A stretch of DNA of 63,120 bases, the filler included. It is 4 parts of 4 records of this genome, joined end to end, with 100 filler letters (N's around TTAATTAATTAA, not from the genome) between each part and the next. Parts side by side here need not be neighbours in the genome. Positions count along the whole stretch, not along the records: positions 31,504 to 63,120 come from SRR22947727_1057; 3 more parts are not named here. The stretch is one strand, 5' to 3'. Under the pieces are notes generated by a model. That model searched no databases. It had not been told where the DNA came from and worked only from the letters and a program-made list of their open reading frames with translations. A program made the position numbers and the translations under genes. Shown here piece after piece: positions 7,485-42,725 of the stretch. Position 1 is the stretch's first letter. Each line of letters starts with the position of its first letter.

Positions 7485-7584
7485 NNNNNNNNNNNNNNNN
7501 NNNNNNNNNNNNNNNNNNNNNNNNNNNNTTAATTAATTAANNNNNNNNNNNNNNNNNNNNNNNNNNNNNNNNNNNNNNNNNNNN
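7485..7584. other. Artificial contig spacer
   Basis: 44 N + TTAATTAATTAA (stops in all six frames) + 44 N. Confidence 0.99.
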
Positions 7585-10376: not shown

Positions 10377-11522
10377 ATGAGTACAAAGCAAATTTTTTTA
10401 AAAGCAAAGTGGGCATCACTAATTGCAATCTCAGCACCTATGATAATGTGGGTGTTTTTACTTGGTCATATCCCAATAATATATGAGAATTTAAATTTGT
10501 CTGAGACAAGTTGGGGGGTATTTTTATTAATCTTTGGAGCAATGCAAATATTATCAGGGCAGATATTTTCAAGACTTGTCACCCCTAAGTATGGAACAAA
10601 GTTAATGATTTGTTTTGGTATTTTAATATTGTCAATTAGTTTTCTTGGAATTAGTTTTGTAAATAGATATGAAACTTTTTTACTAATAGCTGTTTTTTTT
10701 GGACTTTCTATGGGATTGATTATGCCATCAGCAAATTCTCATTTAGCATTAATAGAAGAGAAAACTAATCAAGTACTTCAGCCTATTTTTTGGGCATCAA
10801 TGAGTTTAGGGGCTGTTATTGGAGCATTTTTATCAATTTATTTATTAAATTTAAAATTCAGTATCAGTAATTCTTTTCCAATAATTTCTATAATAGGAAT
10901 TATTATAACCATTTTAGTTTATTATTTAGGACTGCCTAAAGATAAGGATTATTTTGGTAAATCTGAAAAATTCTCATTACCAGATAAAAAGGTAATAATT
11001 TTTGGGGTAATTCTTTTTTTTGAATTTGCAACAGTAGGTATAATAATGGAGTGGTCACCTTTATGGATCACCAATAATTTAAATGCTCCTTTATTTTTAG
11101 GAGCTCTAGTTTTAATTGCGTTTCATGCTGGAGAAATACCTTCAAGAATATTTGGTGCCTATTTAATAAAATTTTTTGGTGAGTTAAGAATTGGCTTTCA
11201 TTTAGTTATAATAGGATGTTTTTGTTTATTTGTTTCAATAATTACTATGCATTATATAATAATAGCAGTAGCTGCATTTATTTTTGGTTTTGCAACAGGA
11301 AACACGAACCCAATTGTAATAAGGCAGGCAATTAAATCTACTAATGAGAATATTCCAACTACTATAGCAAATTTAATGACATTGGCATTTTCAGGATTGA
11401 TGATCGGACCAGGTATAGTTGGCTTAACGGCTAAATATATGGGCATGACTTTTAATATGTATTTATTACCAATAATTTGGGCAATGTGTGCTATTATTTT
11501 TTTGCTAAATTTCAAAAAATAA
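10377..11522 (+). CDS. MFS transporter
   Basis: About 12 hydrophobic segments; EWSPLW, GLMIGPGIVG. Confidence 0.8.
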   Translation: MSTKQIFLKAKWASLIAISAPMIMWVFLLGHIPIIYENLNLSETSWGVFLLIFGAMQILSGQIFSRLVTPKYGTKLMICFGILILSISFLGISFVNRYETFLLIAVFFGLSMGLIMPSANSHLALIEEKTNQVLQPIFWASMSLGAVIGAFLSIYLLNLKFSISNSFPIISIIGIIITILVYYLGLPKDKDYFGKSEKFSLPDKKVIIFGVILFFEFATVGIIMEWSPLWITNNLNAPLFLGALVLIAFHAGEIPSRIFGAYLIKFFGELRIGFHLVIIGCFCLFVSIITMHYIIIAVAAFIFGFATGNTNPIVIRQAIKSTNENIPTTIANLMTLAFSGLMIGPGIVGLTAKYMGMTFNMYLLPIIWAMCAIIFLLNFKK

Positions 11523-11525
11523 TTT

Positions 11526-11600
11526 TGGCTCCCCGGGCCGGGCTCGAACCAGCGACCGATCGGTTAACAGCCGATTGCTCTACCACTGAGCTACCGAGGA
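11526..11600 (-). tRNA. tRNA-Asn(GTT)
   Basis: TCCTCGGTAGCTCAGTGGTAGAGCAATCGGCT-GTT-AACCGATCGGTCGCTGGTTCGAGCCCGGCCCGGGGAGCCA; cloverleaf, encoded CCA. Confidence 0.97.
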
Positions 11601-11648
11601 ACACAATTGGTCTGTTAATAACAAAAAGAAAAAAAAACAAGTAAAATA

Positions 11649-11722
11649 TGGAGGCTCGGAGCGGAATCGAACCGCTGTGCAAGGCTTTGCAGGCCCCTAC
11701 ATAACCACTCTGCCACCGAGCC
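11649..11722 (-). tRNA. tRNA-Cys(GCA)
   Basis: GGCTCGGTGGCAGAGTGGTTATGTAGGGGCCT-GCA-AAGCCTTGCACAGCGGTTCGATTCCGCTCCGAGCCTCCA. Confidence 0.97.
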
Positions 11723-11855
11723 AAATTTTTTGGACAATTAATCTGTTATTAACTTCAAGTCAATTAATCAAAACTATAAGATTGCAAAATAAAAAACATA
11801 TCAATTATATAAGTAGTTATATATACAAACTACTTATAATTTACCCAATACAGCT

Positions 11856-24707: not shown

Positions 24708-24807
24708 NNNNNNNNNNNNNNNNNNNNNNNNNNNNNNNNNNNNNNNNNNNNTTAATTAATTAANNNNNNNNNNNNNNNNNNNNNNNNNNNNNNNNNNNNN
24801 NNNNNNN
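24708..24807. other. Artificial contig spacer
   Basis: 44 N + TTAATTAATTAA + 44 N. Confidence 0.99.
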
Positions 24808-31403: not shown

Positions 31404-31503
31404 NNNNNNNNNNNNNNNNNNNNNNNNNNNNNNNNNNNNNNNNNNNNTTAATTAATTAANNNNNNNNNNNNNNNNNNNNNNNNNNNNNNNNNNNNNNNNN
31501 NNN
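31404..31503. other. Artificial contig spacer
   Basis: 44 N + TTAATTAATTAA + 44 N. Confidence 0.99.
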
Positions 31504-32640
31504 AAAGGTGTTTGGGAAGGCGACTGGAAAGATTCCAATTGTCCTAAAGCCAAAAAAAAACGTGAACAAGTGTTGGCGTTTATGGATGGCAACATGGATT
31601 ATGGTATGATATTAGATATACCTGCTTGGGTATCTCGTTCTCCTGCGGGTGCGGCGGCAAGTAAAATCAGTTCATATCAAGAAGCAGTTGATGGTACAAA
31701 AATTAACAATGATTACTTTATGAAAAATCGTAACGGTAATTGTAAATTTTTAAATGTACTGCAAGGTGAAAACTTTCAACAAGCAGATGATTGGTACACA
31801 CAAATGAAACACTACTGTGATCCTAAACAATTTCCTAGCACACACTTTAATGGTTGGGCAATGGGTGGACAGAACATGTGCGATATACACTTGGCATTGA
31901 AACGTTTGGTGGCATTGAGATTTGATGGATTGTTGGAAAAAGGTGTGCATGATGTTATGCACTTTTTAGGAACAAGTAAATTAGAATGGGCAGTGTTGTT
32001 GACAGATGTTCAAAGAGCAATTAGAAAATATCATAATGAAAACTTTATGATCACATTTGATTGTGCTTCACCTTTCTTAGCCAGTGCTAATGGTCAAATT
32101 TACACTGACATAGAAATTGAAGACAAAAAGAAATGGACATACAGAATGCAACCAAGTGTTGATAATAAAGATTTTTCAACAGAAACAAAATTATTTAGAG
32201 ATGCTGTGTTAGAAAAAGGTATATTTGAAAGATTTATGGACAGTCCTATCAGTAAAAGATTGATGCTGAAAGATATTACCTGTTATAAACCGGGTGATTT
32301 AAACAAGATGGGCAATGAAGGTAGAACATCTTGGGACTCATTCAGTTACACACTACAAATGGCACACAATGTGTGGACACATATTTCAGCAGTGCAAGAA
32401 GCAAATCGTCAATATGATTTAGGTTTAAATCCTAAAATGTTGGTTGAAGAGAAGTTTGATAGAGTTGCTTTTAAAGATATTGTGGATGCCATATTTGCCA
32501 CCAGCAGTAGAGATGAGGCAAACATGGTAATCGAAGAGTTTTCAAGATTCTGGATGTCAATCATTGGCACTAGAGGAGCAACAGGTAAAAAGACAGTGAA
32601 TGCAAGTACACAATTTTCTAACCTATTTGAGGAGGCTTAA
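31504..32640 (+). CDS. Guanine transglycosylase fold protein (TGT/DpdA-like), 5'-truncated
   Basis: Frame open from contig start (KGVWEGDWK...); MILDIP, NVLQG, GWAMGG, HFLG, TFDCASP; no CxCxxC Zn site of tRNA TGTs. Confidence 0.78.
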   Translation, partial: KGVWEGDWKDSNCPKAKKKREQVLAFMDGNMDYGMILDIPAWVSRSPAGAAASKISSYQEAVDGTKINNDYFMKNRNGNCKFLNVLQGENFQQADDWYTQMKHYCDPKQFPSTHFNGWAMGGQNMCDIHLALKRLVALRFDGLLEKGVHDVMHFLGTSKLEWAVLLTDVQRAIRKYHNENFMITFDCASPFLASANGQIYTDIEIEDKKKWTYRMQPSVDNKDFSTETKLFRDAVLEKGIFERFMDSPISKRLMLKDITCYKPGDLNKMGNEGRTSWDSFSYTLQMAHNVWTHISAVQEANRQYDLGLNPKMLVEEKFDRVAFKDIVDAIFATSSRDEANMVIEEFSRFWMSIIGTRGATGKKTVNASTQFSNLFEEA

Positions 32641-32641
32641 A

Positions 32642-32833
32642 ATGGCAATAAGAAAAAGTAGAAAAGTAAAGTCAGTTGAGAAGGAATACAACTGGTACAA
32701 GAGTAAAGTTAATGAAATGGAGTCTGAACGTTCTTATGATAGATCATGGGGCAGTAAAGAACTTCTTTTAAAATTTAAAAAGATGAAACTGTTTTTAAAA
32801 ACACAATTAAAGAAAATGCAGGATACATTATAA
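32642..32833 (+). CDS. Small basic hypothetical protein
   Basis: GGAGG RBS before ATG 32642; fills the operon gap. Confidence 0.7.
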   Translation: MAIRKSRKVKSVEKEYNWYKSKVNEMESERSYDRSWGSKELLLKFKKMKLFLKTQLKKMQDTL

Positions 32834-32835
32834 CA

Positions 32836-33747
32836 ATGAAAAGTTTGGTTGTTGGACTAGGATTTGGACAGTTGTACGTTAACATTCTAAAAAGAATGGG
32901 ACATGAAGTGATTACTGTGGATATAAATCCCAATGCTGATGCAGACTTCACAGAACTTACAACAGCCATAACAGCTCATGCACCATTTGACACTGCTCAT
33001 ATTTGTGTGCCTAATCATTTACACTACAAGACAGCATTAAAATTAGCAGAACACACAAAGATTGTGTTTGTGGAGAAGCCAGGTGTGGAAACAATTAATC
33101 ACTGGAGATTGCTTACAAACCTAAATAAGTCAACAAGATTTATGATGACAAAGAATAATCAGTGGAGAAACAATATCAAACAGATAGCAGAAAATTGTGA
33201 AGCAAGTGATATGATACAGATCAACTGGGTAAACAAAAATAGAATTCCTGGACCAGGAACATGGTTTACAGATAAGAGCAAAGCATTTGGCGGTGTGAGT
33301 AGAGATTTATTACCTCACTTAATGAGTATAATGATGTCAGTGAACAAGAACAGTTATCAAGATTTTAAAGTTAGACAGTATCACACAGAGCAACGATGGA
33401 ACTTGTCGGATTGTACAGGCACAGATTATGGTGTTGTCAATGAAGATGGAGTGTATGATGTGGATGATTCAGCCACTATGGAATTGACAGATGGTAACAA
33501 AACCTATATACTGTATGCTAATTGGAAAACTAACTTACACGATGACATGGCAATACATTTTTACAAAGATGGAGAATCACATTTAGCATCAATACCTTTA
33601 GGATTATGTCCAGAAGAAGCATATAAAGAAATGATCAAAGACAGTTTAATACATCTAGAAGATGATATGTTTTGGAACAATCAGTTGGAACAAGATTTAT
33701 ACATACAGGAAAAAATTAATGACAAAAGTACAGATATTATACACTGA
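32836..33747 (+). CDS. Gfo/Idh/MocA-family oxidoreductase
   Basis: VVGLGFG, ICVPNHLH, VFVEKP, GGVSRDLLPH. Confidence 0.88.
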   Translation: MKSLVVGLGFGQLYVNILKRMGHEVITVDINPNADADFTELTTAITAHAPFDTAHICVPNHLHYKTALKLAEHTKIVFVEKPGVETINHWRLLTNLNKSTRFMMTKNNQWRNNIKQIAENCEASDMIQINWVNKNRIPGPGTWFTDKSKAFGGVSRDLLPHLMSIMMSVNKNSYQDFKVRQYHTEQRWNLSDCTGTDYGVVNEDGVYDVDDSATMELTDGNKTYILYANWKTNLHDDMAIHFYKDGESHLASIPLGLCPEEAYKEMIKDSLIHLEDDMFWNNQLEQDLYIQEKINDKSTDIIH

Positions 33748-34621
33748 AGGTAAAGGTGAATTCAAAGAAGGAGATTTTGAAGTACCTGATATTACCTCTG
33801 ATCAAATAAGAGTAAAAAGTGTTTTTACTGGTGTATGTAGAAGTGATATTGATATGATGAATGGAGACTTTGGTCCACTTCCTTTGAACATGCAAGGTCA
33901 TGAAGGTTTAGGTGAAGTATTAGAAATAGGTAGCGAAGTAAAAGATATCGATGTGGGAGATTATGTTGCAACAAGAGGTGAGCCTGCATATGCTGATCAA
34001 TACAATGCTGATAAAGGAACTTATGTAAGTGTTCCTGAAGCAGACCCTAAATACATCATAGAACCAGTTGCTTGTGGGTTGAATGTGGTCATGCAAGAAG
34101 AATACCAGTTTGAAAAACGTAACAGCAAAGATGCAAGAATTGCCATTATAGGCAGTGGATTTCTTAGTTGGGTTGTGTATCAATATCTAAGTGCTAATTA
34201 TTTCTTTCAAATAGATGTAATAGGCAGTCACAACAAAGAACGTTGGGGTGACAATTTAAAAGATACATTTGAAGGAATGTATGATATTGTGATAGATTTA
34301 AACACTAGAGATGAAGTCTTTGTAAGAGATATCATAAAACCGCAAGGGTTGATTGTGCTAGGTGCAGAGAAAACAGATAAAATTACAACGTCATTTAGCA
34401 AACTGTTATGGAATGCTGTCACTGTTGTGTTTCCGTCTCCTAGACAAAAAGATTTTCAAAGATGTATGAAGACAGCAGTTAACATGATTGAAAAAGGTGC
34501 TTTGAACATAGATAAATTTTGGAGCAAAGGATATAATAGAAAAACAGAATGGCATGATGCTTTTAAAGAAGGCAATCAAAGAATGCCAGGTTACAGCAGA
34601 GGATACATAGAATGGCTTTAG
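33719..34621 (+). CDS. MDR (zinc alcohol/sugar dehydrogenase-like) oxidoreductase
   Basis: GVCRSD, GHEGLG, EPVAC, IIGSG; no structural-Zn lobe; start at ATG 33719. Confidence 0.85.
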   Translation: MTKVQILYTEGKGEFKEGDFEVPDITSDQIRVKSVFTGVCRSDIDMMNGDFGPLPLNMQGHEGLGEVLEIGSEVKDIDVGDYVATRGEPAYADQYNADKGTYVSVPEADPKYIIEPVACGLNVVMQEEYQFEKRNSKDARIAIIGSGFLSWVVYQYLSANYFFQIDVIGSHNKERWGDNLKDTFEGMYDIVIDLNTRDEVFVRDIIKPQGLIVLGAEKTDKITTSFSKLLWNAVTVVFPSPRQKDFQRCMKTAVNMIEKGALNIDKFWSKGYNRKTEWHDAFKEGNQRMPGYSRGYIEWL

Positions 34622-35139
34622 ACACAGCAAAAAGAAAACAGGTAATATACTTTACAGGTACCGAGATAGAAAACACAATAGCAAAAGGTTGGCAAACACT
34701 TTTTGTGGTTGGTGTTAGATCCGCTGAAGAAATTGAAAAATTGGCTGTTGGTCACAAAGCAAAACACATATATTTCGGAACTAGTCAAAGTTTTGTTATA
34801 AACAAGAATGAAGAATTAAAACCTTGGGTGGATATGATAAAATCCTTGTTGGAAAAAGATTTTTGGATCACACTGGACTTTGGTATAGAATATATGGAAA
34901 CTGTTACAAGTACAGGTTTAATGAGTTATAAAAAATTTATTCCAATGATAAGTGCTAAAATTCCAAACATTTACAAAGTGAATGGTAATGCTACACTTAA
35001 AATAGATGATGTTACTTGGGGACATTCAAACACAGGTGTTTGGAGCAGAAACCTAAAAGAAATTACCAAAGATATGCACTACACAGATTGGAAAGAATAT
35101 GTGGGAGACACAGTAATTGACGTTGACACAGACGAATAA
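34612..35139 (+). CDS. Hypothetical protein within base-modification operon
   Basis: 175-aa ORF overlapping the MDR stop; no recognised motif. Confidence 0.7.
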   Translation: MALDTAKRKQVIYFTGTEIENTIAKGWQTLFVVGVRSAEEIEKLAVGHKAKHIYFGTSQSFVINKNEELKPWVDMIKSLLEKDFWITLDFGIEYMETVTSTGLMSYKKFIPMISAKIPNIYKVNGNATLKIDDVTWGHSNTGVWSRNLKEITKDMHYTDWKEYVGDTVIDVDTDE

Positions 35140-35151
35140 AATTGCTATAAT
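35123..35151 (+). promoter_or_regulatory. Consensus sigma70 promoter, probably giving a leaderless mRNA
   Basis: TTGACA-N17-TATAAT with extended TG; ATG 5 nt downstream. Confidence 0.85.
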
Positions 35152-35156
35152 TAGTT

Positions 35157-35540
35157 ATGAATAAAAAAACATTTATATGGGTAACATTTAAAAAAGAAGG
35201 CATTCACAAATATCCTGCGGCATTGGATGATCCAAAGTTAGCAACAGGTGACGAGTATGATGTATCATTTTTAGGATATCCTCACAGACATATATTTCAT
35301 TTTAAAGTGGAGATTGAAGTATTTCACGATGATCGAGACATTGAATTTATTCAATTCAAAAGATGGTTAGAAAAACTGTATGCAGAAAAAACTTTACAGT
35401 TGGATTATAAATCTTGCGAAATGATAAGTGATGATCTATATGAAACAATTACTAAAAAATACCCAGGTAGAGAGATTATCATCAACGTTAGCGAAGATGG
35501 TGAAAATGGTAGTGAGAGCATCTACCATGTTGAGGATTAA
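35157..35540 (+). CDS. QueD-like T-fold protein, DpdL-like
   Basis: EGIH...FLGYPHRHIFHF...KSCEM...VSEDGENG; LxxxHRHxF His motif. Confidence 0.72.
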   Translation: MNKKTFIWVTFKKEGIHKYPAALDDPKLATGDEYDVSFLGYPHRHIFHFKVEIEVFHDDRDIEFIQFKRWLEKLYAEKTLQLDYKSCEMISDDLYETITKKYPGREIIINVSEDGENGSESIYHVED

Positions 35541-35543
35541 TCC

Positions 35544-35708
35544 TTGATTTACTTGTCCGGTATTATTGCTTTTGCCTGTTTAATAGGATTTAGTATTACT
35601 ATGCCTCATCCACTAACAGGCGGCAATGAAATGCTAAATGACATTTACTTTTATTCGTTCGGAGCATTTGCCGGACTAACAATTATTTTAAACATGGACA
35701 ATAAATGA
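35544..35708 (+). CDS. 54-aa two-TM membrane protein (absent from ORF track)
   Basis: GAGGA RBS, TTG start, MIYLSGIIAFACLIGFSITMPHPLTGGNEMLNDIYFYSFGAFAGLTIILNMDNK; ATGA overlap with next gene. Confidence 0.7.
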   Translation: MIYLSGIIAFACLIGFSITMPHPLTGGNEMLNDIYFYSFGAFAGLTIILNMDNK

Positions 35709-36757
35709 CAATTTATATAGTAGACTTAGAAGCAGTTGACACAAGGTACACAAAGGAATGGAAGTCTAATCTTCCTAAGCAACTTAAACGTGCTACCAAC
35801 TTAGATGTTGTGTCTATCAGTGGTGGCGATACTCCACAAGCAACTACACCTGGAGCATTTTTAAACTTTGGTGGCACTAATGTTTACAAAGCCAATCAAA
35901 TGCAACAGATAGGTAAATTGTTCTGCGATGGCAAAATAAAAGATGGTGATTACTTTTTGTATACAGATGCATGGAATCCCACAGTGTTACAATTAAAGTA
36001 CATGGCAGAACTGTTAAAAGTAAAAATTAAGATAGGCGGTATGTGGCACGCCGGTTCATATGATCCGCAAGACTTCTTAGGGAGACTGATTGGAGATAAA
36101 CCTTGGGTAAGAAACACAGAACAGGCAATGTTTGATACATTTGATCACAATTTCTTTGCTACACAATTTCATATTGATTTATTTTCTAAAACATTTACAC
36201 AAGCCAAAGATAATGATAAAGTTGTAAAAGTAGGTTGGCCCATGGAGTATATGGAACACACTTTGGATATGTATCAGAACATGGAGAAGAAAGATATTAT
36301 TCTTTTCCCACATAGAATGGCTCCTGAAAAACAACCTGCTATATTTCAAGATTTAAAAAATGCTTTACCACAATATGAATTTGTGGTTTGTCAGGAAAAA
36401 ACTTTATCTAAAAACGAATATCATAACTTGTTAGGAGAAGCAAAATTAATGTTCAGTGCTAATCTACAAGAAACATTAGGTATCAGTTGGTATGAAGGTG
36501 CTATACTTGGAGTTATTCCAATGATGCCTGACAGATTAAGTTACAAAGAGATGGCACTAAATGAATTCTTATACCCAAGTGAATGGACAGAGAATATGGA
36601 AAGTTACAGAAAACACAAAAAACAGTTGATGGCTAAGATAGATGATTACATGGAAAACTATTCAAAGTATGCTCCTGCTGTTATAAAACAAAAAACAAAA
36701 CTGAAAGAACAATATTTTTCAGGCAATAAACTATATGGAGTTTTATCAAATGGCTAA
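35705..36757 (+). CDS. GT-B (GT4-like) glycosyltransferase
   Basis: LFPHRMAPEKQP and QETLGISWYEG (Ex7E motif), LSYKEM. Confidence 0.8.
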   Translation: MTIYIVDLEAVDTRYTKEWKSNLPKQLKRATNLDVVSISGGDTPQATTPGAFLNFGGTNVYKANQMQQIGKLFCDGKIKDGDYFLYTDAWNPTVLQLKYMAELLKVKIKIGGMWHAGSYDPQDFLGRLIGDKPWVRNTEQAMFDTFDHNFFATQFHIDLFSKTFTQAKDNDKVVKVGWPMEYMEHTLDMYQNMEKKDIILFPHRMAPEKQPAIFQDLKNALPQYEFVVCQEKTLSKNEYHNLLGEAKLMFSANLQETLGISWYEGAILGVIPMMPDRLSYKEMALNEFLYPSEWTENMESYRKHKKQLMAKIDDYMENYSKYAPAVIKQKTKLKEQYFSGNKLYGVLSNG

Positions 36758-37310
36758 AAAAGGACGACCACTAGAACAACAAAATAATCTAGCATCTAAC
36801 GGTATTTACGTTTTGATGGAAGACATCACAATGGAATCTTGTAGAAGTTGCATTCAATGGATTATGAATCACAATCTAGCAGACACAAGATTACCACAAC
36901 TAACTTTGATAATTAATTCACCTGGTGGAGATGTACACGCCGCATTTGCATTGATTGATACAATGAAAGCGAGTACTATACCAATTAAAACTGTGGGATT
37001 AGGATTAATTGCGTCATGTGGATTTTTATTATTCATAGCAGGTAAAAAAGGTTCAAGAATATTAACACCTAATACTGCAATACTATCACACCAATACAGT
37101 TGGGGCAGTGCAGGTAAAGAACACGAACTGTATGCAAGAGTTAAAGAATTCGAACTGAGTACAAAACGAATGATTGAACACTACAAAAAATGTATAGGCA
37201 TGAATGAAAAACAGATTAGAGAAATTTTACTGCCACCACAGGATGTGTGGTTAGATGCCAAGGAAGCAAAAAGACTTAAGATTTGTGATAAAGTAGAAGA
37301 GTTATATTAA
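36750..37310 (+). CDS. ClpP-like serine protease
   Basis: INSPGGDV, IASCG, LSHQ, DVWLDAKEA. Confidence 0.88.
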   Translation: MAKKGRPLEQQNNLASNGIYVLMEDITMESCRSCIQWIMNHNLADTRLPQLTLIINSPGGDVHAAFALIDTMKASTIPIKTVGLGLIASCGFLLFIAGKKGSRILTPNTAILSHQYSWGSAGKEHELYARVKEFELSTKRMIEHYKKCIGMNEKQIREILLPPQDVWLDAKEAKRLKICDKVEELY

Positions 37311-37335
37311 TATATCTTAAAGGAGTTAAATTTAT

Positions 37336-37683
37336 ATGACAATTAGTAAAAAACAAGAAGAAGAAATATGGAGTGTTGATTCTGAATCACTCACTAGTAG
37401 TTCAGCAGGACCGGTTGTGAGTTATTCAACAGATTCCTCATCATTCACACTCACAGAACCAATTGACTTTGGTCCAGATGCAGGGAAAGGTTTTGAAAAT
37501 ATGAAGTTTGACGATTTCTTACCTGGTAAACCTTTTGAAGACACAGTACCAACTTTAGAAACTATAGATAAAGTGTGTGACGATTATCCTTCATTACAAA
37601 TAGCATATGAAAAATTCAAGAACGTTTGGAGAATCTGTTATACAGATTATTGTTCTAAAAACCCAGATGAAGAGAACTACTAA
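37336..37683 (+). CDS. Hypothetical acidic protein
   Basis: AAGGAG RBS; TAATG coupling to next gene. Confidence 0.7.
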   Translation: MTISKKQEEEIWSVDSESLTSSSAGPVVSYSTDSSSFTLTEPIDFGPDAGKGFENMKFDDFLPGKPFEDTVPTLETIDKVCDDYPSLQIAYEKFKNVWRICYTDYCSKNPDEENY

Positions 37684-38132
37684 TGGACAATAAAGTTTAT
37701 TTTACAATGATACAGATTCGAAACGGCATGGATAAAATCTGTGAGCAAATGGGTAAAGATGGATTTGAACCTGACCTTGTTATGGGTATCAACAGAGGTG
37801 GATGTATTCCTGGTGTGTATATGAGTCATCGAATGCATATTCCACACGAAGTATTAGACGTTAGATTGAGAGATCATAAAGCAAAACCAGATTTATCTAA
37901 TCTAGAAAAAGCCTATGCATTTCAAAAAAAAATATTAATTATCGATGACATTAATGATTCCGGTAGCACATTCAAATTCATTCGTGAAAATTTTGGTGGA
38001 GAAGACAGAGTAAAAACAGCCGCAATCATACACAATAAGCCAAGCAAGTTTGACACATTGGATTATTGGTGCTATAATATAAACAAAGAAGAAAATCCAC
38101 AATGGATTGTATTTCCTTGGGAGCAATGGTAA
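37683..38132 (+). CDS. Purine phosphoribosyltransferase (Gpt-like)
   Basis: GINRGG, ILIIDDINDSGSTF PRPP loop, WIVFPWE. Confidence 0.9.
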   Translation: MDNKVYFTMIQIRNGMDKICEQMGKDGFEPDLVMGINRGGCIPGVYMSHRMHIPHEVLDVRLRDHKAKPDLSNLEKAYAFQKKILIIDDINDSGSTFKFIRENFGGEDRVKTAAIIHNKPSKFDTLDYWCYNINKEENPQWIVFPWEQW

Positions 38133-38515
38133 TGATAGAAGTAGACACATTAGAAAAAGCAAAGAAAGACGGAAGAGCACCTTGGACAGATGTGGTGTAT
38201 GATTTTAAAGACATGATGTGGTACAATGACGGATATCCAGTTACAGAAGGACATTCTTTAATAGTGCCTAAAGAAGCAACACAAGAAAGACTTATTAGAT
38301 GTGTTGAACTTGCAATTAAAATAGGCAATGACAATGTTGCCAAAGGTGTTGTTGACGGATACAATGTTGGGATCAATGTTGGTGAAGCGGCAGGACAAAC
38401 TGTGATGTATCCACACGTTCATCTTATTCCTAGGAAAAAAGGTGATTGTGAAAATCCCAAAGGTGGTGTAAGGAATGTTATACCAGGCAAAGGGGATTAC
38501 ACAAAAAATGAATAA
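38132..38515 (+). CDS. HIT-family nucleotide hydrolase
   Basis: YPVTEGHSLIVPK, GEAAGQTVMYPHVHLIPR. Confidence 0.9.
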   Translation: MIEVDTLEKAKKDGRAPWTDVVYDFKDMMWYNDGYPVTEGHSLIVPKEATQERLIRCVELAIKIGNDNVAKGVVDGYNVGINVGEAAGQTVMYPHVHLIPRKKGDCENPKGGVRNVIPGKGDYTKNE

Positions 38516-39074
38516 TGAACCATTTATCAAAGTTTATGATGATCTAATACCTGCTTATTTGCAAGATCATCTTGAGTTAATTACATTAGGTGTTAAAAGC
38601 AAAGGTGAAGAGTTCATTGACCCCAGTGTTGATTTTAAATGCAAATATGAAATAACTGCTAAAGAAACAAATCAACCGCCATTAAGTTTTGTACATTTGC
38701 TTAAATCACATACATCAATCAGTAAACACCTTGACAATTTTGGAATGGTGGCTCAGGCTTTGTGCAATGTAAATGATTTAATATTGCAAAATATTATGTT
38801 GGCAAGAGTGTTTATCACAGTACCACATGCAACAGAACTAACACACTATGCACCTCACATTGATATAGAAGTAGATCATATGGCAGTGATTTATTTTGTT
38901 AATGATGCAGATGGAGATACAGTATTTTTTGACAATGATGGAAAAATTATAAAATCAGTTGAGCCAAAAAAAGGTAGAGCAATTATCTTTGATGGTAAAA
39001 TAATGCATGGAGGTGGGATTCCTAAAAATGGCCCACGATGTATTGCAAACTTTGATATAAAGGTAAAACAATGA
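38508..39074 (+). CDS. 2OG-Fe(II) oxygenase
   Basis: PHID, IYFVNDADGDTVFF, PKKGRAIIFDG..MH, RCIANF. Confidence 0.85.
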   Translation: MNNEPFIKVYDDLIPAYLQDHLELITLGVKSKGEEFIDPSVDFKCKYEITAKETNQPPLSFVHLLKSHTSISKHLDNFGMVAQALCNVNDLILQNIMLARVFITVPHATELTHYAPHIDIEVDHMAVIYFVNDADGDTVFFDNDGKIIKSVEPKKGRAIIFDGKIMHGGGIPKNGPRCIANFDIKVKQ

Positions 39075-39889
39075 GCAGATCACTTTTTATAGGCGATAGC
39101 CACACAGTAGGATATAAAACCATTGAAGGACAAGTTGGTCCAGGTAGTTTTACATTTTGGAACGATAATAATTATGCAGTAAAATATTCTGAAATTCACA
39201 ATAAAGATATTATAATTTATGCTCAACCAGGTGCAACTAACAACTTGTACACAATTTGGTTGGCTAATATGTTTTCTAAATATAACGATATCGACGAAGT
39301 GTTTATTTGTTTGGCTCCGTTGAATAGAATAGAATTAAGTTTTGATCCAGACTTACAACATGAAGCAGGTCCATTAGATCAATTCACATACGAACATCCA
39401 GAATCAACTGAAAATGTTAGAAAATTTTCTGATCAACCTGTTGCAGGAAACACTGTGCAGATATTACAGAAGCCTGTGGGGGATGATTATAAAAAAATAC
39501 CAAGTATTGGCTTTTCAGCAGAACATGGGTTGACATCACCTGATCTAAGAAAAGATCCTTATATGTCTGTAAAATTGTTTTACGAGTGCAACACTATAAT
39601 AGAAAAAAGAGAATTTTTAAAAAATATGTATATGTGGGATAAGATGTGTACAGCAAATAACACAAAGTTGTATGTGTTTAATTTTAGAAGCAGAGGTGTG
39701 TGGCCCAGTGAGTCAGATTATTTTGGTAAAATTGATACCCTGAAAAGAGCTGAACAGAGTGTGGAACAACATCTAAATACATTAGGACACAAAGCAGAAG
39801 ATTATTTTATTGAAGACAAAGAACATTTTAACAATCAATATCATACAATAATAGCAACAGAATATTTGAAATGGCTAAAAGAATATTAA
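39071..39889 (+). CDS. SGNH/GDSL-like protein
   Basis: FIGDSH, QPGATN, C-terminal DKEH. Confidence 0.6.
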   Translation: MSRSLFIGDSHTVGYKTIEGQVGPGSFTFWNDNNYAVKYSEIHNKDIIIYAQPGATNNLYTIWLANMFSKYNDIDEVFICLAPLNRIELSFDPDLQHEAGPLDQFTYEHPESTENVRKFSDQPVAGNTVQILQKPVGDDYKKIPSIGFSAEHGLTSPDLRKDPYMSVKLFYECNTIIEKREFLKNMYMWDKMCTANNTKLYVFNFRSRGVWPSESDYFGKIDTLKRAEQSVEQHLNTLGHKAEDYFIEDKEHFNNQYHTIIATEYLKWLKEY

Positions 39890-40479
39890 TAACAGGCGAC
39901 AGTTTTGGTTGTGAATGGCCCGGTGGTGAAGGTATCGGTTGGCCTTTGATATTATCCGAAACTCATGCTGTGAACAATTTGGCACAGGCTGGTGTGGGAG
40001 AATATAAAATACTGAAACAATTACATGATTTAAGTGCTCATGATTCGTATTGGGTTAACAATTATGATTGTGTTATTGTGTGTCATACAAGTCCTAGCAG
40101 AATACACACACCTAAACATCCTGTACACAAACAAGGGTTACATGAACATTGTGATTTGATATACTCTGATATACACGATAAATTTGATTGGTTCAATCCA
40201 GGGTTGAAAACTGCTAAAAATTGGTTTTATCATCATTACGATGATGAGTACCAAAAAGATCTATATCAAATTTTACGTGAAGAAATAAACAGATTCATAC
40301 CAATTCCATATTTGGCTGTGGACAATTTTAGTATCAGTAACCAATTTGCTTTTGAAAAGAACACATTAGATTTAACAGATATTTGGCATGAACATAGAGG
40401 TGAAATTAATCACTACACTGAAGAAGGAAACCAACTTGTTCTTAAACAAATCATTGACAAATTAGATAAAATTTGTTAA
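39871..40479 (+). CDS. SGNH/GDSL-like protein
   Basis: ITGDSF, NLAQAGVG, INHYTEEGN. Confidence 0.65.
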   Translation: MAKRILITGDSFGCEWPGGEGIGWPLILSETHAVNNLAQAGVGEYKILKQLHDLSAHDSYWVNNYDCVIVCHTSPSRIHTPKHPVHKQGLHEHCDLIYSDIHDKFDWFNPGLKTAKNWFYHHYDDEYQKDLYQILREEINRFIPIPYLAVDNFSISNQFAFEKNTLDLTDIWHEHRGEINHYTEEGNQLVLKQIIDKLDKIC

Positions 40480-40482
40480 TAT
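40454..40482 (+). promoter_or_regulatory. Putative sigma70 promoter for the folE-queE unit
   Basis: TTGACA-N17-TAATAT with extended TG. Confidence 0.55.
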
Positions 40483-40506
40483 AGTAATAACATAGGAGAA
40501 ATAAAA

Positions 40507-40719
40507 ATGGCAAGTAGACAACACATATATGATGCACTTGTGGCACACGCCAAAGGACATATAGAAAAACACAAAGCCAATGTTGAAATATACATGGAGA
40601 AGGCTGTGGGAATTGGTGAACACGGAGACATTCTTGAAACTATAGAAAAAGAATTAAAAGTGATTGCTGAATACCATGATCAATTAGAAGTATTAGAAAC
40701 ATACATCAAGAGGGATTAA
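40507..40719 (+). CDS. Small hypothetical phage protein
   Basis: AGGAG RBS; VGIGEHGDI; coupled to folE. Confidence 0.75.
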   Translation: MASRQHIYDALVAHAKGHIEKHKANVEIYMEKAVGIGEHGDILETIEKELKVIAEYHDQLEVLETYIKRD

Positions 40720-41393
40720 TGAAAGCATCTGAACGAATAAGACAAAGGCTTAAGGAAAAAGACGTTAGATTTCATAGCAATGACAATATTGCTGATTTTG
40801 TAGAACCAGGCGAGTTGGAAGAACTTCAGAAAGAAGTTGAAGATTCATTTTCAGGAGTACTCGATGCATTAGTAATTGATACTGAAAATGATCATAACAC
40901 AAAAGAGACTGCAAGACGTGTTGCTAAAATGTATATAAAAGAAATATTTGGTGGTAGATTTATTCAACCGCCTAAAATTACTTCTTTTCCTAACATGGGT
41001 TATAGAAGTTTATACACAAGTGGTCCAATCAGTGTTAAATCAACTTGTGCTCATCACTTTCAGAATATTGTAGGTAAGTGTTGGATAGGTGTTCTTCCAG
41101 AAAAAGAAGTTATTGGATTATCTAAATTTAATAGATTAGTTCATCACATTGCTGAAAGACCTCAAATACAGGAAGAAATGACAACACAGATTGCTGAAGC
41201 ATTACAAAAATATGCAAAGACTCCAAATGTGGCTGTACTGATCAAAGCAGAACATCATTGCATGACACACAGAGGTGTAAGAGAACATGAATCAGATATG
41301 ACAACTGCTATCATGTTGGGTGCGTTTGATAAACATGCTCCTCTTAAGAAAGAGTTCTATGATATATGTTTGAGCATGAAAGGTCATAACTAA
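40719..41393 (+). CDS. folE: GTP cyclohydrolase I
   Basis: ETARRVAKMY, STCAHH, GLSKFNR, PQIQE, EHHCMTHRG. Confidence 0.95.
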   Translation: MKASERIRQRLKEKDVRFHSNDNIADFVEPGELEELQKEVEDSFSGVLDALVIDTENDHNTKETARRVAKMYIKEIFGGRFIQPPKITSFPNMGYRSLYTSGPISVKSTCAHHFQNIVGKCWIGVLPEKEVIGLSKFNRLVHHIAERPQIQEEMTTQIAEALQKYAKTPNVAVLIKAEHHCMTHRGVREHESDMTTAIMLGAFDKHAPLKKEFYDICLSMKGHN

Positions 41394-41397
41394 ATCA

Positions 41398-42297
41398 ATG
41401 AGTAGTAAACTTCGATATTCAGAAGCATTTTATTCCATACAAGGCGAAGGACGTTTTGTTGGAGTACCCAGTGTGTTCTTAAGAACATTTGGTTGTAATT
41501 TTCGTTGTATGAACTTTGGGTTAGATAAAGAACCAAACAGAGCAGAAAAACTCAAACAAGGAATAAAATACAATCCAGAAGTTAAGAAGTTGTTGGATGA
41601 GGGGATTACTGACAAAGTGGATAAGTTTGAAGACTTGCCAATAATTCATACAGGCTGTGACACTTATGCCAGTATCTATCCTGAGTTTAAAAAGTTCATG
41701 ATGGATAAAACTGTTGACGAGGTTGTGGATCATATATTATCATTAACTCCAGAAGGCAAGTGGACTATGTCTAATGGACAAGATGTACACTTTATTTTAA
41801 CAGGCGGTGAACCTTTGTTAGGATGGCAAAGAACATACATCGAACTATTTGAACATCCAAGAATGAAGGATTTAAAAAATGTTACTTTCGAAACAAACAC
41901 AACGCAGACTTTACATAAGGATTTTGAAGACTATCTTAGAAAACAAAACAGATTCCAAGTCACTTGGTCATGCTCTCCAAAACTTTCCGTATCAGGTGAA
42001 CCTTGGGACACTGCTATCAAACCTGAAATTGCTAGGTCTTATAATGGGATTCCTAACAGTGAAATGTATTTCAAATTTGTGGTTGCTGATGCTTCCGATG
42101 TTGATGAAGTTGCACAAGCAGTTGCCGAGTTCAATCAAGTGGGAGTCAACGTTCCCGTTTATGTCATGCCACTGGGAGGCAGATCAGAAACATACACACT
42201 CAACACAAAAAGAGTTGCCGAATTGGCAATGGCAAGAGGATGGAGATACACTCCAAGACTACACGTCGACATATTCGGAAATGCCTGGGGGACTTGA
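41398..42297 (+). CDS. queE: 7-carboxy-7-deazaguanine synthase (radical SAM)
   Basis: FYSIQGEG, VFLRTFGCNFRC...GCDTY, TGGEPLL, FETN, CSPKL, PRLH. Confidence 0.88.
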   Translation: MSSKLRYSEAFYSIQGEGRFVGVPSVFLRTFGCNFRCMNFGLDKEPNRAEKLKQGIKYNPEVKKLLDEGITDKVDKFEDLPIIHTGCDTYASIYPEFKKFMMDKTVDEVVDHILSLTPEGKWTMSNGQDVHFILTGGEPLLGWQRTYIELFEHPRMKDLKNVTFETNTTQTLHKDFEDYLRKQNRFQVTWSCSPKLSVSGEPWDTAIKPEIARSYNGIPNSEMYFKFVVADASDVDEVAQAVAEFNQVGVNVPVYVMPLGGRSETYTLNTKRVAELAMARGWRYTPRLHVDIFGNAWGT

Positions 42298-42329
42298 TAA
42301 AATAAACAAGGAAAAAATGGAGAATAATA

Positions 42330-42725
42330 ATGGACATCATTAAGAAAATTAAAGAAGTAAAGGACAAGTTTATTAAGAAGAAAGAAACAACTTCTAAAGA
42401 AACTGGTAAAAATCCAAAGTTAGATGCATTAATGAAAGAAAAAGAACAAGCAACAGCAAAAGGTGAACCTTGGGTTGCTGTGTTAGACACAAAAATTAAT
42501 GGAGACAACATAAGAAACGGGTTCTTTGAACTGGATTGGAACAATGAGTTTATTGAGAAACTGTTGGATGCTGGATACAAAGGTGAAAGCAATGAACAAA
42601 TAGTAGATGGTTGGTTCAGAACAATAGCTCAAAATATTCTTGATGAAGAAGGTTTAGATCCTACAAGAGGTGCTGGATATATCAATACAAAAAATTTAAG
42701 TGAGGATAAATCGGAGATCAGTTAA
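42330..42725 (+). CDS. Hypothetical phage protein
   Basis: GGAG RBS; EPWV...GFFELDWN. Confidence 0.75.
   Translation: MDIIKKIKEVKDKFIKKKETTSKETGKNPKLDALMKEKEQATAKGEPWVAVLDTKINGDNIRNGFFELDWNNEFIEKLLDAGYKGESNEQIVDGWFRTIAQNILDEEGLDPTRGAGYINTKNLSEDKSEIS

Follow-up and report, generated by a model that had tools for sequence, protein, structure and literature searches.

The window, by which we mean the whole 63,120-nucleotide stretch of DNA analyzed here, contains runs of N at 7485-7584, 24708-24807, and 31404-31503 and is thus four contigs joined by linkers. Three are bacterial, and the fourth is part of a marine jumbo phage genome of some 360-400 kb, whose replication region (PolB and sliding clamp, followed by RNaseH and an AAA ATPase) shows synteny with that of Pseudomonas phage PA5oct. 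Embedded in this region is a deazaguanine module (31504-42297) of 17 ORFs, all on the plus strand, that overlap or are spaced by no more than 32 nt, with the single exception of a 164-nt gap from 35540 to 35705. The run is co-oriented and tightly packed, as the original prediction had it, but both properties extend far past the cluster limits, so they provide no evidence of an operon on their own; that the cluster is more than chance is indicated by the synteny conserved in other phages. The contig is also truncated upstream, as had been noted: position 31504 immediately follows the linker that ends at 31503, so the first gene lacks its 5' end. A scan of the phage contig for tRNA genes found none. 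The features of the run are as follows.

31504..32640, plus strand: DpdA-like transglycosylase of the TGT superfamily, 5'-truncated (from predicted structure)
32600..32833, plus strand: small basic ORF, 77 aa, pI 10.2 (70-100% identity in 20 of 25 loci, marine lineage)
32836..33747, plus strand: Gfo/Idh/MocA NAD(P) oxidoreductase (PF01408, 33.3 bits, cut-off 24)
33662..34621, plus strand: Zn-type medium-chain dehydrogenase, MDR (ADH_N, 42.4 bits; phrog_2640); likely start at the second Met, 33719
34612..35139, plus strand: 175-aa protein, a member of the conserved gene core in several lineages
35123..35151, plus strand: site matching the sigma-70 consensus in full, TTGACA-17-TATAAT with TG, just ahead of DpdL (consensus match only)
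35157..35540, plus strand: DpdL homologue, T-fold QueD paralogue (motif LGYPHRHIF; phrog_17812, E 2.9e-35)
35705..36757, plus strand: GT4-like GT-B glycosyltransferase (GT), 350 aa (from predicted structure)
36735..37310, plus strand: ClpP-family protease (PF00574, E 5.6e-29)
37336..37683, plus strand: acidic ORF, 115 aa (poorly conserved, 53-100% identity within the lineage)
37683..38132, plus strand: type I phosphoribosyltransferase (PRTase), XGPRT-like (PF00156, E 6.4e-13; phrog_8995)
38102..38515, plus strand: HIT-family nucleotide hydrolase/transferase (PF01230, E 2.2e-11)
38475..39074, plus strand: 2OG-Fe(II) oxygenase (PF13640, 31.3 bits; phrog_274, phrog_61)
39071..39889, plus strand: 272-aa protein, N-terminal GDS motif (FIGDSHT), possibly an SGNH hydrolase
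39871..40479, plus strand: 202-aa protein, N-terminal GDS motif (ITGDSFG), possibly an SGNH hydrolase
40507..40719, plus strand: conserved phage protein, 70 aa (phrog_1811, E 3.2e-28)
40719..41393, plus strand: FolE, GTP cyclohydrolase I (PF01227, E 8e-46; phrog_2197, E 4.7e-52)
41398..42297, plus strand: QueE-like radical-SAM 7-carboxy-7-deazaguanine synthase (phrog_2076, E 1e-50)

The earlier gene list had overlooked ClpP and three small ORFs; its calls for FolE, QueE, the Gfo/Idh/MocA oxidoreductase, the MDR, the PRTase, the HIT protein, and the 2OG oxygenase all agree with the family matches above. Its two SGNH proteins do carry the GDS motif, but a family assignment did not follow: the 272-aa protein had no match in Pfam, PHROG, NCBIfam, or the PDB, and the 202-aa protein had none in Pfam, PHROGs, or NCBIfam, its sole match being the GDSL protein 4rsh (E 0.92).

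The frame of the first gene is open from the linker onward, and a full-length, 97% identical form of 496 aa (L002:46-1536, minus strand, in virus record G001) supplies the N-terminus, including LGDSGGFQ with the DSGGFQ motif. The TGT/DpdA-like call for this gene, which lacks its start and had no match in Pfam, PHROGs, or NCBIfam, TGT models included, holds at the level of the predicted fold (AF2 model of the 496-aa form, pLDDT 79.6). Foldseek gave Z. mobilis TGT for each of its top 50 matches (E about 1e-6), and the best five of 48,161 PDB representatives by VIA-align all belonged to the TGT superfamily (Z 14.1-17.5), with ArcTGT at 17.5, QTRT2 at 16.6, and TGT at 16.5. The DNA preQ0 insertase DpdA (7ui4) gave Z 14.7 over 304 aligned residues, and other, unrelated TIM barrels gave at most 11.7. 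D111 (DSGGFQ), D156, and D304 (FDCAS) are invariant among 25 sequences. The protein is related weakly to DpdA3 by hhalign (probability 12%), and the PA5oct homologue is 34% identical. The gene lies between the sliding clamp and replication genes, adjoining PolB. We interpret its product as a TGT-fold, DpdA-like transglycosylase with DNA as the putative substrate.

The T-fold protein, originally described as QueD- or DpdL-like, is assigned to DpdL, and a QueD identity was dropped: LGYPHRHIF fits the published DpdL signature LxxxHRHxF (Cui et al. 2023), the catalytic Cys of PTPS/QueD is missing, and identity is 34% to phiST CGPG_00067 and 58-74% to the PA5oct, ACP17, and Phosso proteins. The sigma-70 consensus preceding it matches at 12 of 12 positions, in a sequence where the total of promoter-like sites is not above that of shuffles. 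The QueE-like protein is 46% identical to QueE of L025, 38% to that of BUCT-ZZ01, and 31% to that of PA5oct; NCBIfam QueE models match it below cut-off only (E 6e-11, 42.5 bits versus 260). The window has no QueD. In the related record G002, a PTPS gene is found at a distance of about 50 kb, and eight of the nine records searched contain PTPS/QueD. None of these nine has QueC above cut-off, and searches for QueC, QueF, QueA, and QueG found none. Thus, the pathway stops short of preQ0 and cannot lead to preQ1 or queuosine.

Although the 350-aa protein encoded next has no match in Pfam, PHROGs, or NCBIfam, a confident model (AF2, pLDDT 96.2) predicts a GT4-like GT-B glycosyltransferase, in keeping with the original call. 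Foldseek placed BshA (5d01, E 1.9e-11) first, then MshA, PimA, and glycogen synthase, with a tetrahydrobiopterin glucosyltransferase (9v0l) at rank 40. R204, K209, and E256 are near-invariant and E264 is invariant, giving an EX7E motif; homologues comprise 1271 cluster representatives. The literature that we searched contained no paper linking a GT to 7-deazaguanine DNA.

The expectation that the GT belongs with dpdA genes is borne out in other phages. A GT homologue occurs in 23 phage records, and in 18 of these it adjoins DpdL and a DpdA or is no more than 4 kb from them, counts that overstate independence because many records are near-identical. The association extends over at least 10 diverged phage lineages, including PA5oct, ACP17, Phosso, BUDD/X1, BCSR5, and BUCT-ZZ01, in which the GT directly adjoins DpdA or DpdL, the stop codon of one gene often overlapping the start codon of the next, at GT identities down to 24-29%. 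Beyond the 18 records, four further metagenomic lineages keep the arrangement at GT identities down to 29%; metagenomic lineages with the synteny are L024, L025/26, and L056-59. The DpdA partners fall in at least two different subfamilies, and gene order around the module is otherwise not conserved, for example, among ACP17, BUDD, and PA5oct:

PA5oct: DpdA-GT-DpdL-x-epimerase-like-PRT-QueE
ACP17: QueD-FolE-u175-like-DpdA-GT-DpdL-QueE
Phosso: DpdL-GT-x-FolE...QueE
BUCT-ZZ01: QueE-PRT-x-QueD-FolE-GT2-DpdA-DpdL-GT
BUDD: GT-DpdA, then DpdL-QueE
BCSR5: GT-DpdA, then a 97-aa ORF and QueE; DpdL lies upstream of GT by about 2.7 kb

The GT family is not exclusive to deazaguanine clusters, since in five records of jumbo Xanthomonas/Erwinia phages a homologue (27% identity, 64% coverage) has GlmS and a BshB-like deacetylase as neighbors, and deazaguanine genes are missing within 7 kb. 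Nor does DpdL need the GT: 10 DpdL-positive records, phiST and nine more, have no GT homologue.

Co-occurrence with dpdA, predicted also for the two oxidoreductases, holds for the GT and DpdL but not for the Gfo/MDR pair, which is confined to the marine lineage and absent from L024-L026, PA5oct, ACP17, Phosso, BUDD, BCSR5, and BUCT-ZZ01. The Gfo/Idh/MocA sequence has EKP and DxxxH motifs and only far sub-threshold NCBIfam matches (e.g., UDP-GlcNAc 3-dehydrogenase, 26.7 bits versus a cut-off of 450); the MDR has GVCRSD, GHE, and GSGFLS. The idea of sugar tailoring stays alive because in other lineages this slot is filled by sugar-type enzymes of other kinds. In L025, a UDPG/GDP-Man-dehydrogenase-like gene overlaps the GT stop; the PA5oct module includes an epimerase-like gene, that of BCSR5 a PIG-L-like gene, and that of BUDD likewise (33% identity to the BCSR5 gene); and BUCT-ZZ01 and L057 have a second GT inside the module.

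Among the remaining genes, that of the 175-aa protein recurs in the marine lineage, L024, L025/26, and ACP17 by HMM search, and in ACP17 just upstream of DpdA (E 1e-51); it had no match in Pfam, PHROGs, NCBIfam, or, by profile, the PDB, and none of its 594 homologues is named. The PRTase is 36% identical to a BUCT-ZZ01 "xanthine-guanine PRTase," 35% to that of L025, and 21% to that of PA5oct. ClpP (probably unrelated to base modification) and HIT, both absent from L024-L026, the 2OG-Fe(II) gene, missing from L014 and L024-L026, and the GDS-motif genes are lineage-specific. The 77-aa ORF had no match in PHROGs, and the 115-aa ORF no family match in Pfam, PHROGs, or NCBIfam.

From family membership, GTP would be the substrate of FolE in the first step and QueE would form 7-carboxy-7-deazaguanine (CDG), with QueD, absent from the window, acting between the two. 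CDG would pass to DpdL, which has been proposed in print to decarboxylate it to 7-deazaguanine. The TGT-fold enzyme may then swap DNA guanine for the deazapurine, as suggested by its fold, the conserved Asp motifs, the location of its gene within the replication module, and the resistance of PA5oct DNA to G-site restriction enzymes reported in a 2025 preprint. The GT4-like enzyme would most likely move a sugar from an NDP-sugar onto the deazaguanine, giving a product beyond dDG; the Gfo/Idh/MocA and MDR enzymes could, as the most speculative step, tailor the donor sugar in the marine lineage. The PRTase would most simply return guanine freed by base exchange to GMP, then GTP. We regard the run as a deazaguanine DNA module on the CDG/DpdL branch, equipped with a dedicated GT that may add a sugar to give a product beyond dDG, although our overall judgment of this reading is evenly balanced. 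The phage 7-deazaguanine cluster of the original prediction stands in its TGT-fold enzyme, FolE, QueE, DpdL, and GT, and its sugar-bearing product is plausible from gene neighborhood. We know of no obvious hydroxyl acceptor on 7-deazaguanine for a GT4-type enzyme, which counts against glycosylation of the base.

Alternatively, the module might yield plain dDG (or dCDG), and the GT and Gfo/MDR enzymes might act elsewhere, perhaps on a second base in DNA, on a protein of the phage or host, or on a glycan of the host envelope. Their genes would then be near the deazaguanine genes only as fellow early anti-defense or replication-region genes. We consider this possible but unlikely. In its favor, Cellulophaga phage phiST carries plain dDG in its DNA and has DpdL, DpdA3, FolE, QueD, and QueE but no GT. 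The other GT-free DpdL records, the GlmS/deacetylase neighborhoods, and the marine lineage-specific insertions (Gfo, MDR, ClpP, HIT, 2OG), of a kind common in marine phages, point the same way. However, a GT adjoining DpdA/DpdL in at least 10 lineages, at such low GT identities and with DpdA from at least two subfamilies, is hard to explain without shared function, and the rest of the gene order is not kept. More doubtful is that the module acts on a free small molecule or nucleotide rather than on a base already in DNA. The PRTase might make a deazapurine nucleotide for a pre-replicative route or a nucleoside, much as a PRTase converts a deazapurine base to a nucleotide in toyocamycin/tubercidin biosynthesis, or FolE, the T-fold protein, the reductases, and the GT might build a pterin glycoside. 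Recurrence of the PRTase in the window, L025, BUCT-ZZ01, and weakly PA5oct is consistent with this, as are the GMP reductase, NT5C nucleotidase, and HAD-like phosphatase encoded upstream in G001, MazG in the L025 and phiST modules, and the tetrahydrobiopterin glucosyltransferase match. Yet that match is no better than those to dozens of other GT4 enzymes, the PRTase serves guanine salvage equally well, and a TGT-fold base-exchange enzyme, needless for a nucleotide-level route, is always there; QueE commits the pathway to deazapurines, and a pterin route through DpdL is unlikely because the PTPS/QueD catalytic Cys is missing.

In animals, a GT4-family enzyme glycosylates queuosine in tRNA, and the best structural matches of the transglycosylase are tRNA enzymes. 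Both would fit modification of host or phage tRNA through a queuosine-like pathway, perhaps glycosylated as in eukaryotic galactosyl- or mannosyl-queuosine, but we find this very improbable. At this degree of divergence, Z gaps of 2-3 cannot tell one substrate from another, the gene sits among replication genes, the phage contig has no tRNA genes, and QueC, QueF, QueA, and QueG are absent; further, the restriction-resistant DNA of PA5oct and the dDG made by the DpdL-type cluster of phiST both point to DNA. The placement of this GT beside deazaguanine genes in many unrelated phages suggests an as yet undescribed guanine modification.

Three places at which runs of N flank a stop-codon linker (7485-7584, 24708-24807 and 31404-31503) mark the window as four joined contigs and not one molecule. 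Contigs 1-3 (1-31403) have 23-33% G+C and carry ordinary bacterial genes (ValRS, ArgRS, IlvD, TrkH, a TolC-like OEP for efflux, UmuC and formate-THF ligase), together with tRNA-Asn and tRNA-Cys. Contig 4 (31504-63120) is viral, has ~35% G+C, and carries the cluster. Bacterial contigs beside a phage contig could point to the host if the assembly is from a single cell or is well binned, or they could reflect faulty binning. The nearest virus record, G001 (48 kb, rated 12% complete by CheckV), matches the whole of 31504-42400 at 97% identity, and a 148-kb record of the window lineage is rated 41% complete, so that the two ratings imply a phage of roughly 360-400 kb. At the DNA level, megablast of these 11 kb matched nothing in the phage collection.

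The cluster (31504-42297) comprises 17 ORFs, all on the + strand, which overlap or are separated by at most 32 nt, the sole exception being the 164 nt between 35540 and 35705. Because co-orientation runs on for many kb to either side, it is a property of the genome and not of the cluster. The genes discussed here are as follows:

31504-32640, + strand, DpdA-like transglycosylase
32836-33747, + strand, Gfo/Idh/MocA oxidoreductase
33662-34621, + strand, ADH_N/MDR dehydrogenase
34612-35139, + strand, 175-aa protein
35157-35540, + strand, DpdL
35705-36757, + strand, glycosyltransferase (GT)
36735-37310, + strand, ClpP
37683-38132, + strand, PRTase
38102-38515, + strand, HIT protein
38475-39074, + strand, 2OG-Fe(II) oxygenase
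39071-39889, + strand, GDS-motif protein
39871-40479, + strand, GDS-motif protein
40719-41393, + strand, FolE
41398-42297, + strand, QueE-like radical-SAM protein

Pfam, PHROGs, and NCBIfam bear out the family calls of the original prediction for Gfo/Idh/MocA, ADH_N/MDR, PRTase, HIT, 2OG-Fe(II) oxygenase, FolE, and QueE-like radical-SAM, and family models also recovered the ClpP gene, which it had overlooked. The same three collections gave no match for the transglycosylase, the 175-aa protein, the GT, or the two proteins called SGNH. What stands of the SGNH calls is a pair of N-terminal GDS motifs (FIGDSHT and ITGDSFG); family models do not back them, and a PDB search gave one of the two a GDSL protein as its best match (E 0.92) and the other no match. 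Perfect matches to the sigma-70 promoter consensus (TTGACA-17-TATAAT plus extended TG) lie directly upstream of DpdL (35123-35151) and of the HIT gene (38050-38078) and, as consensus matches only, suggest possible early transcription by the host polymerase.

DpdL (127 aa) contains LGYPHRHIF, which fits the signature LxxxHRHxF that has been set against the QueD motif CxxxHGH (Cui et al. 2023, NAR, PMC10516641). Its identity is 34% to the founding DpdL, CGPG_00067 of phage phiST (E 1e-10 by tblastn, 1.3e-16 by blastp), and it is 58-74% identical to the proteins of PA5oct (58%), ACP17 (59%), and Phosso. DpdL is the proposed decarboxylase of 7-carboxy-7-deazaguanine (CDG) on the way to dDG, although its heterologous expression failed (PMC10516641). 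FolE scores 156.2 bits against PF01227 (cut-off 27), and the QueE-like protein matches phrog_2076, "QueE-like radical SAM", over its full length (E 1e-50), but reaches only 42.5 bits against the NCBIfam QueE equivalogs (cut-off 260) and E 0.0063 against Pfam Radical_SAM. QueC was above cut-off in none of the nine related records searched, five of which are complete genomes. PTPS/QueD is absent from contig 4 and present in eight of the nine records, including one of the window lineage (G002), where it lies ~50 kb from the cluster. The lack of QueC and the frequency of PTPS/QueD in these records imply that the pathway ends at CDG or a CDG derivative, as in other DpdL phages. We regard it as highly probable that the cluster serves the modification of DNA with a 7-deazaguanine through the CDG/DpdL branch.

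The window copy of the DpdA-like gene is cut by the contig end; the G001 copy encodes 496 aa, with the motif LGDSGGFQ in the stretch shortly before the start of the window copy. This full-length protein matched no family at E <= 0.01, Pfam PF01702 and the NCBIfam TGT models included, and searches of the PDB by single sequence and by profile returned no match. The top 50 Foldseek matches of its AF2 model (pLDDT 79.6) are exclusively Z. mobilis TGT, and the five best of 48,161 PDB chains compared by VIA-align are ArcTGT (Z 17.5), QTRT2 (16.6), bacterial TGT (16.5), DpdA 7ui4 (14.7), and Cap10 (14.1), with unrelated TIM barrels at Z <= 11.7. Residues D111 (in LGDSGGFQ), D156, and D304 (in FDCAS) are invariant in 25 DpdA-like sequences, and the aspartate motifs align motif for motif with those of ACP17 DpdA (VDSGGLQ, YDST). 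By motif, the DSGG(F/Y)Q and (F/Y)D(C/S) aspartates presumably correspond to the TGT catalytic residues. Given the TGT-type structural matches and the invariant aspartates, the modelled protein is assigned to the TGT superfamily as a member unseen by Pfam. An Atlas feature match, which is a lead only, was to a cluster with PF01702 in 17% of members. The protein shares the TIM-barrel TGT fold (Z 14.7-17.5) and the DSGG and FDC-type motifs with the bacterial DNA preQ0 insertase DpdA (PDB 7ui4) and the tRNA-guanine transglycosylases, but it is only 13-16% identical to them, lacks a PF01702 match and a visible CxCxxC zinc motif, and has ~100 additional N-terminal residues. Its partners also differ from those of bacterial DpdA, being a GT and DpdL instead of DpdB or QueC.

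At E <= 0.001, at least 7,888 of 8,000 candidates tested are homologues of the DpdA-like protein, on contigs of up to 333 kb and in many cases from marine samples, and a second clade, 38% identical, adds 7,286 more. By tblastn the protein was found in 13 records: the PA5oct group, Phosso, and one Vibrio phage only. Alignment by hhalign to phiST DpdA3, the only named phage subfamily compared, was marginal (probability 12%, E 0.0024), and the DpdA-like profile did not match the 416-aa protein of BUCT-ZZ01. Median isoelectric points of the DpdA family (5.9) and the GT family (5.7) are uninformative on DNA binding.

The AF2 model of the GT (350 aa), built from a 60-sequence alignment, has a pLDDT of 96.2 and a pTM of 0.93, and matches 484 PDB entries at E <= 0.001, led by BshA (5d01, E 1.9e-11) and followed by MshA (3c4q), PimA, and glycogen synthases; on this model the GT is predicted to have a GT-B fold of two Rossmann domains and to be GT4-like. 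Within its EX7E motif E256 is near-invariant and E264 invariant, and R204 and K209 each occur in 90% or more of the 60 sequences. As in other GT4 enzymes, this Arg/Lys pair presumably binds the NDP-sugar diphosphate, and the conservation of the pair and of EX7E is as expected for an active NDP-sugar enzyme. Pfam Glycos_transf_1 does not match the window GT; it does match a more distant GT, 21% identical, in the same module of a metagenomic locus (L057; 27.8 bits, cut-off 26.4). Clustered at 50%, the family comprises 1,271 representatives, and three of four divergent GT queries returned no viral loci. BshA and MshA, the GlcNAc transferases of bacillithiol and mycothiol synthesis, share the EX7E motif and the Arg/Lys pair with the GT. 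BshA works with BshB, and the GT likewise adjoins a PIG-L/BshB-like deacetylase in the PhiXhv phages and BCSR5, as it does in BUDD too if the BUDD gene is judged by its similarity to that of BCSR5. The GT is, however, only 11-13% identical to BshA and MshA, and its acceptor must differ from theirs, since genes of the malate and inositol pathways are lacking.

The argument that this GT belongs to deazaguanine chemistry is one of synteny.

Gene orders in related phages (x, a further gene; percentages, identity to the window protein unless stated otherwise)
PA5oct: PolB, clamp, DpdA-like (34%), GT (45%), DpdL (58%), short epimerase-like gene, PRTase (21%), QueE (31%), RNaseH (54%), AAA ATPase (52%)
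ACP17: QueD, FolE, 175-aa homologue, DpdA, GT, DpdL, QueE
Phosso: PolB, clamp, 177-aa protein, DpdL, GT, x, FolE ... QueE
BUCT-ZZ01: QueE, PRTase, x, QueD, FolE, second GT, DpdA, DpdL, GT
BUDD: PAPS-reductase-like, PIG-L-like (33% identical to that of BCSR5), 143-aa gene, GT, TGT-annotated DpdA, DpdL, QueE
BCSR5: PAPS-reductase-like, PIG-L-like (weak Pfam match), 155-aa gene, GT, TGT-annotated DpdA, 97-aa ORF, QueE; DpdL ~2.7 kb upstream of GT
Lineage with a 29%-identical GT: PolB, DpdL, GT, x, (x), DpdA-like

DpdL is present in 18 of 23 phage records with a GT homologue. A GT search of IMG/VR yielded 25 loci: 23 contain DpdL, the remaining two start only within the GT gene, and 22 contain the DpdA-like gene. 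In the lineage with the 29%-identical GT, DpdL is present in three of four loci, the fourth starting inside the GT gene, and the DpdA-like gene in all four. These counts include many near-identical records and correspond to about ten independent lineages, across which GT and DpdL are kept together with dpdA, as the original prediction would have it. The GT is paired with at least two different DpdA subfamilies. The 29%-GT lineage also has a further GT gene near FolE and QueE (L056:28-639 and L057:2772-3956, the L056 fragment being 54% identical to the window GT), which hints at more than one sugar transfer. On balance, the GT is probably a functional part of the deazaguanine module.

The replication-region module of PA5oct (a Wroclawvirus) has the same gene order as that of the window, but without Gfo, MDR, ClpP, HIT, 2OG, and the GDS-motif proteins; it has no FolE within the 25-kb locus examined, and has the short epimerase-like gene instead. 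In the passages available to us of a 2025 preprint (PMC12191111), PA5oct DNA resists G-site restriction enzymes, from which its authors infer a modified G, naming QueE and PTPS genes, and nucleases that sense modified G target the phage; the GT and the DpdA-like gene do not come up in those passages, and no mass spectrometry is given for PA5oct. The G-site resistance of PA5oct DNA is the only sign, and an indirect one, that the DpdA-like enzyme inserts a deazaguanine into DNA.

Three distant metagenomic loci (L024-L026) help to separate the core of the module from its lineage-specific genes. All three retain the 175-aa protein, DpdL, GT, and QueE, and L025 and L026 also retain the DpdA-like gene, FolE, and PRTase; neither these loci nor the cultured relatives have Gfo, MDR, ClpP, HIT, 2OG, or either GDS-motif protein. 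The Gfo/MDR pair, which the original prediction had made part of the sugar-adding module, is thus specific to the marine lineage. A Gfo protein query for loci returned the window lineage only and says nothing on Gfo beyond that lineage. Other sugar-type genes occupy the corresponding slot elsewhere: a UDP-glucose/GDP-mannose-dehydrogenase-like gene that overlaps the GT stop in L025, the epimerase-like gene in PA5oct, the PIG-L-like gene of BCSR5 and the BUDD gene 33% identical to it, and a second GT in BUCT-ZZ01 and L057. A UXS-like (UDP-glucuronate-decarboxylase-like) SDR, read from sequence, lies beside QueD in the virus record G003. That differing sugar-type enzymes stand in the same slot fits, circumstantially, a sugar that varies between lineages.

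Several observations concern neighbouring genes. L025 lies on a ~259-kb jumbo phage contig (11095-11865, 16145-16462, and 17298-18392), where the GT is followed by the short Ugd-like gene and QueE is flanked by MazG and SAM synthetase; at another site of the same record (L054:2236-3168), QueD is followed by the UDP-glucuronate-decarboxylase-like SDR. The modules of BUDD (L051:6374-6868) and BCSR5 (L052:6137-6784) enclose a PAPS-reductase-like PP-loop protein; QueC, which activates the CDG carboxylate, is also a PP-loop enzyme, and by analogy the BUDD and BCSR5 proteins might prepare CDG for another ligation. For the 175-aa protein, the best Atlas score (0.84) was to unnamed clusters, PDB searches by sequence and profile gave chance-level matches only (gasdermin-like, WD40), and hhalign showed no significant similarity to either the Phosso 177-aa "glycosylase" or the 143-aa protein of BUDD. 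The phage ClpP (36735-37310) and a 749-aa ClpA/ClpB-type double-AAA chaperone encoded ~15 kb upstream of the cluster in G001 (L002:16361-18610) could form a phage-borne Clp proteolysis system. Upstream of PolB in G001 (L002:6061-8076 and 11055-11780) are a GMP reductase and a peroxiredoxin-like protein, both read from sequence, a HAD/PNKP-like phosphatase, and an NT5C 5'-nucleotidase; guanine released during base exchange could be processed by the GMP reductase and the PRTase. The best PHROG of the 2OG oxygenase (38475-39074) is phrog_274, whose label "DNA endonuclease V" looks wrong for a 2OG-FeII_Oxy_3 protein.

The phiST system counts against a sugar on the final base. Its dDG pathway (FolE, QueD, QueE, DpdL, DpdA3; PMC10516641) and the window module both have FolE, QueE, the LxxxHRHxF DpdL, and a TGT-superfamily transglycosylase in clustered genes, both lack QueC, and the product in phiST is known to be dDG. 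Thus DpdL can act without a GT, and nine further DpdL-positive records likewise have none. phiST lacks the GT4-like gene, the 175-aa protein, and PRTase, and its DpdA3 has 259 aa and is only marginally alignable with the 496-aa protein. Also against a glycosylated base are five Xanthomonas/Erwinia jumbo phage records in which the neighbours of a GT homologue are GlmS and a BshB-like deacetylase and no deazaguanine gene occurs within 7 kb. One such block (GlmS, BshB-like deacetylase, GT homologue) is found at L060:4669-7903 in the Xanthomonas phage PhiXhv-15, from a group of 228-kb phages, again with no deazaguanine genes nearby, and may serve another sugar pathway or another kind of DNA modification.

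The acceptor is a further difficulty. Phage hydroxymethylpyrimidine glycosylation (the T4 alpha- and beta-glucosyltransferases, and the 5hmC glycans of bioRxiv 10.1101/2023.12.21.572611) likewise places a GT beside base-modification genes, with lineage-variable sugar enzymes whose variation suggests that the glycans vary too. T4-type systems, however, act on a pyrimidine with a hydroxymethyl acceptor, whereas 7-deazaguanine is a deazapurine with no obvious hydroxyl, and the T4 glucosyltransferases are not among the top structural matches of the window GT. ThyA-like genes, checked for an hmC route, were uninformative (one strong match each in PA5oct and the records G003 and G004, and none in the partial marine records). 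Weighing the conserved GT against these points, we put the chance that the final DNA base carries a sugar or sugar-derived group at about even, and find it rather doubtful that Gfo and MDR tailor that sugar.

A specific chemistry can be proposed for a sugar-bearing base, although we consider it unlikely in this particular form. Removal of the CDG carboxyl by DpdL would expose the electron-rich C7 of 7-deazaguanine, and the conserved GT4-like enzyme would then join a sugar directly to C7, or to another ring position, to give glycosyl-7-deazaguanine in DNA. The sugar would vary by lineage, being tailored by Gfo and MDR in the marine phage and by the Ugd-like enzyme (with the UXS-like enzyme beside QueD) in L025, and GlcNAc/GlcN-like in BCSR5 through the PIG-L-type gene, as in BUDD through the homologue of that gene. 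To our knowledge, eight 7-deazaguanine derivatives occur in phage DNA, and none carries a sugar. No paper connecting a glycosyltransferase with 7-deazaguanine DNA emerged from a full-text literature search. This result is provisional, and the phage lists of Cui et al. could already include some of the genes.

The GT stays beside DpdL and DpdA both in the abundant marine jumbo phages and in those of Pseudomonas, Acidovorax, Xanthomonas, Burkholderia, Sinorhizobium, and Synechococcus, and so conserved a partner points to a further, uncharacterised step in deazaguanine chemistry. Several GT-bearing phages are already in culture, which makes the proposal directly testable. One of them, PA5oct, is a phage-therapy candidate that, in the part of its literature available to us, shows an unexplained G modification sensed by defence nucleases; the identity of the base would explain restriction and END-nuclease phenotypes, add an enzyme type for DNA glyco-engineering, and improve the prediction of DNA modification from metagenomes. 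The DpdA-like family, for all its thousands of metagenomic members, escapes Pfam, so that current surveys probably count too few deazaguanine systems. If glycosyl-7-deazaguanine is indeed the product, it would be a glycosylated purine-type base without precedent in any genome and, given those thousands of homologues, its pathway could be among the commonest deazaguanine systems in the ocean.
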